A DNA stretch of 64,000 bases from an uncultured Chloroflexia bacterium (lineage in GTDB: Bacteria > Chloroflexota > Anaerolineae > Promineifilales > Promineifilaceae). Where the stretch lies: contig CAVWDW010000003.1 of NCBI GenBank assembly GCA_963753865.1, forward strand, positions 53,619 to 117,618, written 5' to 3'. Position numbers and translations under genes: made by a program. The notes under the pieces are model-generated. The model was not told the origin of the DNA, searched no databases, and was given only the letters and a program-made list of their open reading frames with translations. The stretch's first letter is position 1. Every line of letters starts with the position of its first letter. This document shows, piece by piece, positions 49,884 through 64,000 of this stretch.

Positions 49884-50077
49884 TCGCAGACCTCAGAGGT
49901 CTTGAAGTAGATGGCGACGTGACAACTTCTGTCCTGTCGCACAGGCGGTTGTTGGCAGTGGCAAGCAGTGACCTCTCCGTGGCGACCGGAGAGTCACCAT
50001 ATTTACCAACTTCACAAACAGGTTGCCTGCGATTGCGTTATATTGCTGTCTTGCCAGCCTGCTTCGCAGCACTGTAC

Positions 50078-50273
50078 CAGGGTTTTTCAGTTGTCTGTTT
50101 CGGCCGGAACACAGGCCGTTTCAACGGCCTGCTACCGGAGGAAACCCACCGAAGGTGGGTTGCAGAAGGGGTGGCCGGCGCGCTGTCCTTTCCGGGTCAA
50201 GTGGGTTTTGACCCACTTGCCCGGTAGCTGCCGGGTTGTCAACCCGCAGCGGCTTGACAACTGAAAAGCCCTG
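50078..50273. mobile_element. 196-bp MITE-like non-coding element, copy A: 18-bp terminal inverted repeats and 10-bp target-site duplication
   Basis: 5' CAGGGTTTTTCAGTTGTC and 3' GACAACTGAAAAGCCCTG are reverse complements apart from one T/C. Flanked by AGCACTGTAC at 50068-50077 and 50274-50283. About 80% identical to 63366-63559. Confidence 0.75.
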
Positions 50274-50448
50274 AGCACTGTACCGCAGCAGTAGTGACTA
50301 TCAGCTGTTTGCTATACAATAGCAGAACATATCTCGCCCCACTTTCTTTGCTTCCAGATGAATAGGTTCGTATCAGGGCAGGATACCCGTTTTCCCGTGG
50401 TGTCGGCGTTCTTGCCGCGCACCTGTTATGATCGCATGGAGGTTTCTA

Positions 50449-62819: not shown

Positions 62820-63227
62820 CTACTTCAGACGCGACAGGGTTATCACCGGGATCTTGCGCTCCGTTTCCTCGCGATAGGTGGTGAAGTTGTCGAAGGCAGC
62901 TTCCATCCTGGCGTACAGTTCATCCCGCACACTGCCGTCGACGACCTCGGCCCGGGCGCTGAACTGGGCCGTGCCGTACTCCACGAACACCTCCGGGCGC
63001 TTCAGAATGTTGTGATACCAATCGGGGTTATTTTCCGCGCCGCCGTTGGAGGCGACGATGACCAGCTTGCCGGCGTTCTCGATGGTGACCAGCGGGTTGA
63101 CGCGCTCTTCGCCGCTGTCGGCTCCGAATGTATGGAGCAGCAGCAGGCGGTTGTCGGCAAAACGGCCGCCAACCATGCCGTCGTTGGCGCGAAACTCTTC
63201 GATAATCTTCTCATTAAAGTCTGACAT
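62820..63227 (-). CDS. Deazaflavin (F420)-dependent nitroreductase family protein (DDN-like)
   Basis: MSDFNEKIIEEFRANDG...GGAENNPDWYHNI...VITLSR matches the DDN/PF04075 pattern. The ATG at 63227 is chosen over the longer ORF-track start. Confidence 0.75.
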   Translation of the reverse strand: MSDFNEKIIEEFRANDGMVGGRFADNRLLLLHTFGADSGEERVNPLVTIENAGKLVIVASNGGAENNPDWYHNILKRPEVFVEYGTAQFSARAEVVDGSVRDELYARMEAAFDNFTTYREETERKIPVITLSRLK

Positions 63228-63365
63228 AGCGTGTATTCCTTGCAAGACGGCCGCCCCGCCGCTCGGGGCTGGACCGCAGTATACGTTTGTTGAGTGCTTG
63301 GGTACCATGATAGTAGCAGATTTTGGCCAACTTGCCTCATTTGTTGGCGCCAATCAGTTTCGCGC

Positions 63366-63559
63366 CAGGGTTATGTAGTTGTCTGTTTCAGGTGGCATAC
63401 AAGCCGTTGGAATAACCTGCTGCTGGTGGCAACCCGCTGGAGATGGGTTGCAGAAGGGGTGGCCGGTGCGCTTTCCTTCTCGTCTTTAGTGGGTTTTGAC
63501 CCACTTCCCCGGTAGCGGTCGGGTTGTCAAGCCGCTGCGGCTTAACAACTGAGCCCCTG
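63366..63559. mobile_element. 194-bp MITE-like element, copy B, with a 9/10 target-site duplication
   Basis: Same ends (CAGGG...CCCTG) and the same conserved core as copy A. Flanked by AGTTTCGCGC (63356-63365) and AGTCTCGCGC (63560-63569). Confidence 0.7.
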
Positions 63560-63673
63560 AGTCTCGCGCACCGAACCTACCGCGACGCAACCGCCTGCGG
63601 TATACTGGCGTCGGGTTTCCCACCCTGAACCGAATATTGCCGCTCAACATCCCCCTATAAGAAGGAAGCGCCC

Positions 63674-64000
63674 ATGCAGCCCAGCCTATTTGACACGGAA
63701 GTCAAACTCGCCGTCTACCGTCATCTTGCAGAGAGTGGCCGGCGGCCGCCGGTGGAGCAGATCGCCGAGCGACTCGAGGTCAGCGTCGGCCGTATTCTGG
63801 CCGCCTATGAACGTTTGCAAGACCAGCGGCTGCTGGTGCTGGAGCCGGACCGGGCCACCATCCGTATGGCCCCACCCTTCTCCGGCGTGCCTACGCAGCA
63901 CGTGGTCGAGTCCGGCGGCGTGCGCTACTTTGCCAACTGCGCCTGGGATGCGCTGGCAGTGCTGGCGGCGCTGCGTCGACCGGGGGTGGTCCGCTCAGCC
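63674..64000 (+). CDS. Alkylmercury lyase (MerB)-like family protein, N-terminal part; runs off the window
   Basis: My own translation from the ATG at 63674: MQPSLFDTEVKLAVYRHLAESGRRPP...MAPPFSGVPTQHVVE...YFANCAWDAL. This shows an N-terminal wHTH-like region plus a Cys-containing MerB-type motif. It is not in the ORF track because no stop falls in the window. Confidence 0.55.
   Translation, partial: MQPSLFDTEVKLAVYRHLAESGRRPPVEQIAERLEVSVGRILAAYERLQDQRLLVLEPDRATIRMAPPFSGVPTQHVVESGGVRYFANCAWDALAVLAALRRPGVVRSA

Follow-up and report, generated by a model that had tools for sequence, protein, structure and literature searches.

The 64,000-nt window analyzed here, a stretch of contig CAVWDW010000003.1 from an uncultured Chloroflexia bacterium of the Promineifilaceae, carries a 194-nt repeat, copy B, between two divergently oriented genes, one encoding a deazaflavin-dependent nitroreductase (DDN) and the other a MerB-like lyase. 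An initial annotation recognized copy B as the second, diverged copy of an element also present elsewhere in the window (copy A), correctly placed it between these genes, and took its conserved core for a functional RNA or protein-binding module that could affect promoter or untranslated region functions. The locus thus raises the question of whether copy B acts on the genes beside it or is the remnant of a mobile element, and of where its folded core comes from. Our results indicate that copy B is very probably the fossil of a chimeric MITE (miniature inverted-repeat transposable element), inserted by an ISAs1-type DDE transposase and enclosing a doublet of repetitive extragenic palindromes (REPs) akin to a REPIN (REP doublet forming a hairpin), the hairpins of which were shaped elsewhere, probably as single-stranded DNA (ssDNA) substrates of Y1 transposases, and which is now decaying neutrally.

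Copy B belongs to a MITE family

BLAST and profile searches of the 5.12-Mb assembly identified 55 loci of this element, spread over 10 of the 11 contigs; 42-44 of these are full length, and the consensus measures 195 nt. The family has terminal inverted repeats of 18-24 nt, with consensus ends CAGGGTTTTTCAGTTGTC and GACAACTGAAAAGCCCTG, and its copies are bordered by short direct duplications. The two 10-bp flanks match at 8 or more positions in 36 of the 42 full copies, 18 of them perfectly, against 67 of 2,000 random position pairs, and a duplication length of 10 bp is the sole signal among offsets of 6 to 14 (0.76 identity vs about 0.3). Copy B itself starts with CAGGG, finishes with CCCTG and lies within a 9/10 direct repeat; its boundaries and this repeat had been correctly reported. 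No transposase gene is present within its 194 nt, where the open reading frames (ORFs) are only short chance frames. The pairing between 5' and 3' ends reported for both copies also held, with the ends of copy A complementary over 18 nt at 94%; these ends pair because they are terminal inverted repeats, and the initial annotation had not read them, together with the 10-bp duplication, as hallmarks of a transposon. Most copies (47 of 55 by a crude gene call) are intergenic, and their strand shows no bias relative to same-strand flanking genes (18 in the same orientation, 14 in the opposite one).

To look for an empty site, we searched the genomes of the genus with the left and right flanks of copy B spliced together. 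In a congener (G011), the segment C6:112089-112894 aligns unbroken over the joined flanks (806 vs 808 nt, 86% identity) and carries a single AGT-CCGCGC where the window has duplication, element and duplication. Both the left and the right junction of copy B were found without differences in contigs of two public metagenomes, and no empty-site form of the locus was seen in those contigs. The distribution of the family is narrow: among 40 relatives, copies are present only in G011 (five, at 76-89% identity). A pattern scan for the element core in 185,579 species genomes other than that of the window returned one match, in a contig of an Opitutus metagenome-assembled genome, which we rejected as a chance match after nhmmer found no element there.

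One copy (C3:167252-167432) lies at an orthologous site in both species and is 100% identical to its counterpart (G011:C6:178250-178428). The surrounding segment of about 580 nt is about 98% identical between them, as opposed to 86% at the DDN/MerB locus, which suggests a recent exchange of this segment. The shared copy is nested in the end of a MITE of a different, 124-nt family and is flanked by the duplication CTGAACACCC. Two pairs of loci on different contigs present identical flanks (C5:5755-5946 and C3:295037-295228; C4:7474-7664 and C3:271790-271980) and are either segmental duplications or the product of redundant assembly contigs.

The ends of the element match those of an ISAs1 remnant

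Outside the MITE copies, a scan with the end sequence yielded one match with at most two mismatches, CAGGGTTTTTCAGTAGTCGG at C7:214424, which agrees with the consensus end of the MITE at 18 of 20 positions. An inverted partner of this end bounds a 1,282-bp unit (C7:214424-215705), and the only ISAs1 transposase signal of the genome (PF13808; NF033564 in three pieces) sits inside that unit. Members of the ISAs1 family are characterized by 14-22-bp inverted repeats starting with CAGGG and by a 10-bp direct repeat (PMC11946415), as illustrated by ISArsp11, an element of 1,306 bp with the inverted repeat CAGGGCTGATGCAAAGTCG and a 10-bp direct repeat (PMC6305408). The MITE presents both published features, CAGGG-starting inverted repeats and a 10-bp direct repeat (PMC11946415, PMC6305408), and on the basis of its ends and duplication we therefore place it with ISAs1. 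The 1,282-bp unit is likely the parent of the MITE in this genome, now dead. Given that the sole end-matching ISAs1 element is broken and that no MITE copies are identical, the family looks extinct.

This genome contains no fewer than four MITE families with CAGGG ends, which differ in their subterminal sequences. The second family consists of elements about 124 nt long that end in CAGGGCTTTTCAGTAGTCGG...TCGAACAGTGAAAAGCCCTG and have duplications of about 10 bp, with at least 10 copies (for example C7:223332-223455, C7:620233-620356, C9:412336-412459, C9:598420-598543 and C1:76289-76412); its ends are closer to those of the ISAs1 remnant than are those of the 195-nt MITE. A third type, of 122-135 nt (C3:217241-217362, C7:749956-750090), has a different interior with a GAAACCGAGTTTCT palindrome and likewise shows duplications of about 10 bp. 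The fourth, of about 200 nt and with about 20 BLAST matches (for example C7:693436-693640, C7:727068-727242 and C10:86732-86929), has ends CAGGGCAATCGC...GCGATTGCCCTG, and its interior also holds a REP-like two-hairpin arm (GCTGCCGGTTGAAACCGGACAGCTAGCGAGCAAACCTGATGAATCAGGTT).

The core is a REPIN-like doublet of an older two-hairpin arm

Following up weak BLAST matches to positions 116-173 of the MITE consensus in two relatives (G005 and G021), we found stand-alone palindromes, each about 125-135 nt long and lacking CAGGG ends, in G002, G005 and G021; a reversed control pattern finds nothing. Each palindrome is made up of two inverted arms of about 55 nt, and each arm comprises a hairpin 1 (e.g. 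GCGGTGGGTTGAAACCCACCGC), a linker (GCTAGC or GCTGGC) and a hairpin 2 (e.g. AGTGCGTTAAAACGCACT). The interior of the MITE follows the same four-hairpin layout, with left and right arms in every copy examined in the arm alignment, and stand-alone doublets were seen in G015, G056, G040 and G142 as well. As the linker, this MITE has GGTAGC, G005 and G021 have GCTAGC, and G002 has GCTGGC or GCTGAC.

We assessed covariation in the two hairpins (16 pairs) of 31 aligned arms against 500 shuffles. Cells forming a standard pair amount to 87.7% (72.5 ± 1.1% in shuffled alignments), those changed on both sides to 75 (22.4 ± 3.5), and the covariation score to 0.428 (0.156, with slid controls at 0.03-0.11); none of the 500 shuffles reached any of these values. 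Changes on both sides occur in 10 of the 16 pairs, with up to four standard pair types per pair, which implies several independent events.

Matches to a covariance model built on the arm occur in 43 of 121 sampled genomes, which represent 37 of the 85 sampled genera in the class, and frequently lie in inverted doublets or in arrays (up to 44 matches were listed per genome). In several genomes the arms accompany Y1 transposase genes. In G005, a 164-aa Y1 transposase ORF (C274, 654-1148) is bracketed by inverted arms at 546-605 and 1213-1273, with inverted repeats of 29 nt (93%) and 28 nt (86%). A Y1 gene on C2 of G002 has inverted arms on both sides. In the window's own genome, a tandem array of arms related to these (C3:181387-182216) comes after the single Y1 gene (C3:180772-181116). 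This layout corresponds to the one described for REP/RAYT (REP-associated tyrosine transposase) systems and REPINs, in which repeats surround a Y1 transposase gene and form doublets as they do here (PMC3116915, PMC3337134, PMC6006769). A literature search on the hairpin loop motif found nothing relevant.

The region around this Y1 gene (C3:180766-182260) has a REPtron-like look, with an intact 171-aa IS200-like Y1 ORF and then at least five tandem 161-nt units, each containing the hairpins GCCGGTGGTTGAAACCACCGGC-TAGC, AACGCATCTTGATGCGTT and CGGGGAATTCATTCCCCG. Tandem arm arrays are also present in relatives, with a 144-nt period in G005 (C159:6900-7435) and a period of about 73 nt in G038 (C94:71-349). 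Among the matches listed, the arms of the window's own genome fall only in the 195-nt MITE, the 200-nt CAGGGCAATCGC family and the Y1-adjacent array; one candidate for a stand-alone progenitor doublet, C9:626173-626334, proved to be an old MITE copy with decayed ends. In two other genomes a CAGGG-starting sequence precedes REP-like doublets, namely in G015, of the same genus (C167:15717-15930, CAGGGCAATCGC), and in G142, of another family of the class (C581:745-900, CAGGGTAGAGTC), which hints that the combination of end and doublet may be recurring.

The arm is far older and more widespread than the MITE, known from two species, which suggests that either the MITE acquired the doublet or the doublet acquired ISAs1 ends. 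The position of the arm beside Y1 transposase genes makes it plausible that, at the level of the superfamily, it is a protein-binding (ssDNA) module. On this evidence the core is an older module, selected for its structure and probably bound by a Y1 transposase, that proliferated here inside ISAs1 ends. The reading of the core as a functional module therefore holds in part: its hairpins are structured and covary across the superfamily, while no evidence was found that the element, or copy B in particular, has an RNA or regulatory role.

The hairpins do not covary within the MITE family

Over 197 aligned columns of the family alignment, 37 mismatches and 4 gap columns separate copy A from copy B. 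The two are 79-81% identical, in line with the 80% and roughly 39 differences first estimated by hand; the copy nearest to copy B is 82% identical to it. The two blocks described as identical in both copies, GGGTTGCAGAAGGGGTGGCCGG and AGTGGGTTTTGACCCACTT, are indeed so (positions 50157 and 50200 in copy A, 63445 and 63488 in copy B), and each occurs exactly twice in the window, with no occurrence expected by chance. The corresponding identical runs, of at least 22 and at least 19 nt, are mildly unusual (p about 0.02). As reported, the 5' third holds the most differences (18, 13 and 10 by thirds), but the thirds do not differ significantly (p = 0.30). Over 44 aligned copies, the uneven conservation proposed for the core gives way to a near-uniform profile, with a per-column identity of 0.85-0.95 in 10-nt windows and one dip at consensus positions 111-125, in which the two blocks are not special.

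Two differences between copies A and B had been taken as preserving pairing. The change from CCCGG/CCGGG to CCCGG/TCGGG is present, but it is a single substitution, with no repeated compensation; about half of the aligned copies carry it (UG in 21, CG in 20), and it thus looks like one inherited event. The supposed repair of a mismatch in the terminal hairpin amounts to one pair gained and another lost, with both copies 92% complementary over 13 nt. We then imposed the minimum-energy fold of copy A (76 pairs) on an alignment of 43 copies and compared it with 500 shuffles. Standard pairs form in 85.9% of cells (85.5% shuffled), 12 pairs are changed on both sides (9.0 ± 2.3 shuffled; 64 of 500 shuffles as high) and the covariation score is 0.083 (0.082 shuffled; 152 of 500 as high). 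When the structure is slid by 1-3 columns, as many pairs are changed on both sides as in the true fold, or more. Covariation across further copies, which the initial annotation had proposed as a test, is hence no greater than in shuffled alignments, and compensatory change holds across the arm superfamily but not inside the MITE family. Where two copies of a repeat differ in a seemingly "pairing-preserving" way, the differences may be subfamily markers passed on by descent, and covariation needs to be tested at the right evolutionary level.

Folding energy follows divergence across copies (r = 0.84). Young copies reach fold z-scores of -7 to -8.5 on either strand and copy A one of -8.5, compared with -2.65 (plus strand) and -3.4 (minus strand) for copy B. 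RNAalifold gives weak consensus folds for the 44-copy alignment (-20 to -23 kcal/mol). We also simulated neutral decay by random mutation of the global consensus, a procedure confounded by subfamily-diagnostic differences and used here only for old single copies such as B. Copy B folds at -81.8 kcal/mol, as compared with -74.3 ± 8.3 kcal/mol in the simulations, 12 of 60 of which are as stable; its loss of pairing is consistent with neutral decay.

Searches for signs of function at the locus were likewise negative. Rfam has no match in the window at the gathering threshold and none at E ≤ 5 for positions 63300-63620; on the palindromes of the relatives it returned only generic matches to long hairpins resembling miRNA precursors, far below threshold. 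A scan of positions 63150-63750 found neither a sigma-70-like promoter nor an intrinsic terminator. No RNA runs containing the stretch were found, and three metatranscriptomes from a study whose data include the DNA contain next to none of its sampled words. In G011, the orthologous intergenic region lacks the element; promoter-proximal blocks beside both genes are shared by the two species and fall outside the element, which occupies the least conserved middle of the region. No evidence was thus obtained for the promoter or untranslated region role suggested for the DDN/MerB genes, and action of the MITE or of copy B as an RNA or regulator is not supported. The most fitting reading of the intergenic region is a pair of ordinary promoter regions that an insertion has separated.

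Origin of copy B and alternative explanations

In the course of events that we favor, an ISAs1-family DDE transposase would have recognized in trans the CAGGG-initiated terminal inverted repeats, and the element of about 195 nt would have been inserted at a staggered 10-bp cut, generating the AGTYTCGCGC duplication, with the least conserved middle of the DDN/MerB intergenic region as its landing place. The insertion would be later than the split of this allele from that of G011, which keeps the empty site. The ISAs1-type ends enclose a REPIN-like doublet, its two inverted arms each consisting of hairpin 1 and hairpin 2 with a GCTA(G/C)C linker between them. As the arms belong to an older, class-wide family flanking IS200-like Y1 (HUH) genes, the "conserved core" would be inherited cargo, with hairpins selected in the arm superfamily, most likely as Y1 ssDNA substrates. 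In this genome the arms would have multiplied only as passengers of CAGGG-ended MITEs. Copy B, in which two of the four hairpins are eroded and both ends degenerate, would now decay neutrally, and it probably has no function beyond setting two divergent promoter regions 204 bp apart.

A further step, which we regard as possible but doubtful, is that the union of ISAs1 ends and REPIN cargo is no accident, in that REP doublets of Y1 systems would have repeatedly switched vehicle and been amplified by DDE transposases, leaving the roughly 55 copies as candidate ssDNA substrates for the resident, intact Y1 enzyme, with dual recognition. ISAs1-type ends are combined with the doublet in at least two MITE families of this genome, and the CAGGG-preceded doublets of G015 and G142 may point the same way. 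If so, such copies could be re-mobilizable, seed rearrangements or serve as Y1 landing sites.

The same doublet might instead have been the agent of spread, the copies being REPINs mobilized through their arms by the resident IS200-like Y1 (HUH) transposase and the CAGGG ends being incidental. The interior is of the type that flanks Y1 genes, and the genome retains one intact Y1 ORF, but in 36 of 42 copies it is CAGGG/CCCTG, and not the arms, that the 10-bp duplications adjoin, which contradicts this route, and HUH Y1 transposition, as in IS200/IS605 and RAYT systems, is not known to make a target duplication. Moreover, among the matches listed, arms free of CAGGG ends occur in this genome only in the Y1-adjacent array, and their stems (GGTGGTT/AACCACC) are other than those of the MITE arms. 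We regard this route as very unlikely. We also consider it highly improbable that exaptation has turned the element or copy B into a cis-regulatory module or structured non-coding RNA serving the DDN/MerB-like pair. Young copies do fold far better than shuffles on both strands, copy B lies between divergent genes, a position taken by 19 of the 55 copies, the two blocks are identical in A and B, and the hairpin covariation is real at the superfamily level. Against this stand the absence of covariation beyond shuffles among the 43 copies and their near-uniform conservation, the loss of pairing in copy B at a neutral rate, the unbiased gene orientation, the lack of promoter- or terminator-like sites and of Rfam matches in the scans described above, and the G011 orthologue, which works without the element and shares conserved promoter-proximal blocks that lie outside it. 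The least probable alternative in our assessment is mobilization by a DDE transposase other than ISAs1, such as that of an unrecognized or lost element with similar ends. The resident ISAs1 element is dead and its ends are closer to those of the 124-nt family, and the coexistence of at least four CAGGG-ended families with different subterminal sequences would also fit such an origin; CAGGG ends with a 10-bp duplication are, however, the published ISAs1 signature (PMC11946415, PMC6305408), and the 18/20 match of the ends coincides precisely with the tip of the genome's only ISAs1 gene unit.

Several observations weigh against the origin of copy B as an ISAs1-inserted, neutrally decaying MITE with REPIN-like cargo. 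The transposase gene of the ISAs1 unit is broken, being spread over three frames and interrupted by one TAA; the unit shows no visible target duplication, and its similarity to the MITE is limited to the ends of about 18 nt, which also rules out the MITE as a simple deletion derivative of the resident insertion sequence (IS); we accordingly infer mobilization by this element only as a historical event. An intact ISAs1 transposase is present in G011, but it is 23% identical to the remnant and lacks similar CAGGG-type ends, and it was therefore ruled out as the partner. On the side of the cargo, the linker, which reads GCTAGC, GGTAGC or GCTGGC, departs from a strict GTAG head, and the Y1 proteins match the IS200/IS605 model NF033573 (78-83 bits, cut-off 55) and not the curated RAYT model NF047646 (19-21 bits, cut-off 80); for this reason we describe the system as REPIN-like in its mode of operation and do not count it among canonical RAYT members. 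With regard to neutrality, the gene calls behind the context of the copies are crude, and the copies show a mild excess between divergent genes (19 of 55, vs 27% of intergenic length genome-wide). Furthermore, subfamily masters retain structure beyond what random mutation of the global consensus would leave (mean difference -8.7 kcal/mol), and some diverged subfamily members do so to a far greater degree (for example C5:5755, at -104 kcal/mol); this could reflect constraint on actively transposing lineages or masters, or a global consensus that is a poor ancestor.

Anatomy of copy B and neighboring genes

The features of copy B, of copy A and of the flanking genes are collected in the table. 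In the opposite arm of copy B, pairs are broken in the arm alignment (row M195copyB_R). The MerB-like protein has a weak match to NF009710, and its N-terminus (positions 63674-63800) shows a weak, below-cut-off match to the helix-turn-helix-like Sigma70_r3 (21 bits), so that the protein may have a DNA-binding domain of its own.

Table. Coordinates of copy B, its parts, copy A and the flanking genes in the 64,000-nt window
Feature	Position	Strand	Description
MITE copy B, 194 nt	63366..63559	+	nhmmer 175.6 bits; old, decayed member of the ~195-nt family
Left target-site duplication	63356..63365	.	AGTTTCGCGC; 9/10 match to right copy
Right target-site duplication	63560..63569	.	AGTCTCGCGC; 9/10 match to left copy
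Left terminal inverted repeat	63366..63385	+	degenerate; CAGGGTTATGTAGTTGTCTG vs consensus CAGGGTTTTTCAGTTGTCTG
Right terminal inverted repeat	63540..63559	-	degenerate, with a 2-nt deletion (AACAACTGAGCCCCTG)
Better-preserved REP-like two-hairpin arm	63481..63542	-	covariance model R1 match C3:117099-117160, 55.2 bits
Parts of this arm	hairpin 1, about 63517-63538; hairpin 2, 63488-63505		GGTAGC linker between them; hairpin 2 is AGTGGGTTTTGACCCACT
Opposite arm, partly decayed	63400..63450	+	hairpin 1' CAAGCCGTTGGAATAACCTG (63400-63419), hairpin 2' CAACCCGCTGGAGATGGGTTG (63430-63450)
Copy A, same MITE family	50078..50273	+	perfect duplication AGCACTGTAC at 50068-50077 and 50274-50283
Deazaflavin-dependent nitroreductase (DDN family) gene	62823..63227	-	TIGR00026 86 bits, PF04075 106 bits
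MerB-like lyase gene, N-terminal part	63674..64000	+	PF03243 32.3 bits, cut-off 27; runs off the window

Comparison with known systems

The diagnosis of a MITE is in itself ordinary. Correia/CREE, RUP, BOX, ERIC and Nezha elements are, like the family described here, short, non-coding, multi-copy, mostly intergenic and strongly folded, with inverted ends and target duplications. They differ in that the partner here is ISAs1 and the duplication is 10 bp, and while some classical MITEs have promoter, terminator or RNase-site roles, we found no evidence for such roles here. For annotation purposes, the copy B stretch and about 55 others are to be treated as MITE copies, not as candidate RNAs.

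With ISAs1-family IS elements (ISArsp11, ISPmar4, Frankia Francci3_2330/2941) the MITE shares CAGGG-starting inverted repeats of 18-24 nt and the 10-bp duplication, and an ISAs1 unit of about 1.3 kb with near-identical ends is present in its own genome. Unlike them, it has no transposase gene, is 195 nt long and has an unrelated interior, the REP doublet. ISAs1 is a little-studied family, and the titles and abstracts of papers that mention both ISAs1 and MITEs did not suggest an ISAs1-derived MITE family. In the literature searched, we found no described precedent for DDE-type ends around a Y1-type REP doublet, for the presence in one genome of four or more ISAs1-ended MITE families along with their dead parent, or for a class-wide two-hairpin REP-like family.

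The interior of the MITE resembles REPIN and REP-RAYT systems (Bertels & Rainey 2011; Quentin et al. 2018) in its two inverted hairpin repeats around a spacer, in that the same repeats flank a Y1 gene of one or few copies and occur as doublets and tandem arrays, and in the maintenance of arm stems by compensatory change. It departs from them in its arm, which has two hairpins, is about 55 nt long and carries a GCTAGC/GGTAGC linker in place of a fixed GTAG head, and in its transposases, which match the IS200 model and not the curated RAYT. Present in 37 of 85 sampled genera, the arm family constitutes a REP-like system that has not been catalogued and lies outside the Proteobacteria, the group from which REPINs are best known. 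Unlike REPINs, which have no such duplications, the doublet is here wrapped in DDE-type ends with 10-bp duplications. This chimeric build unites two classes of non-autonomous elements that are usually handled apart, DDE-type ends and the REPIN-like doublet of an IS200-like Y1 system, and suggests that a structure-selected module can go on spreading after a change of mobilizing enzyme.

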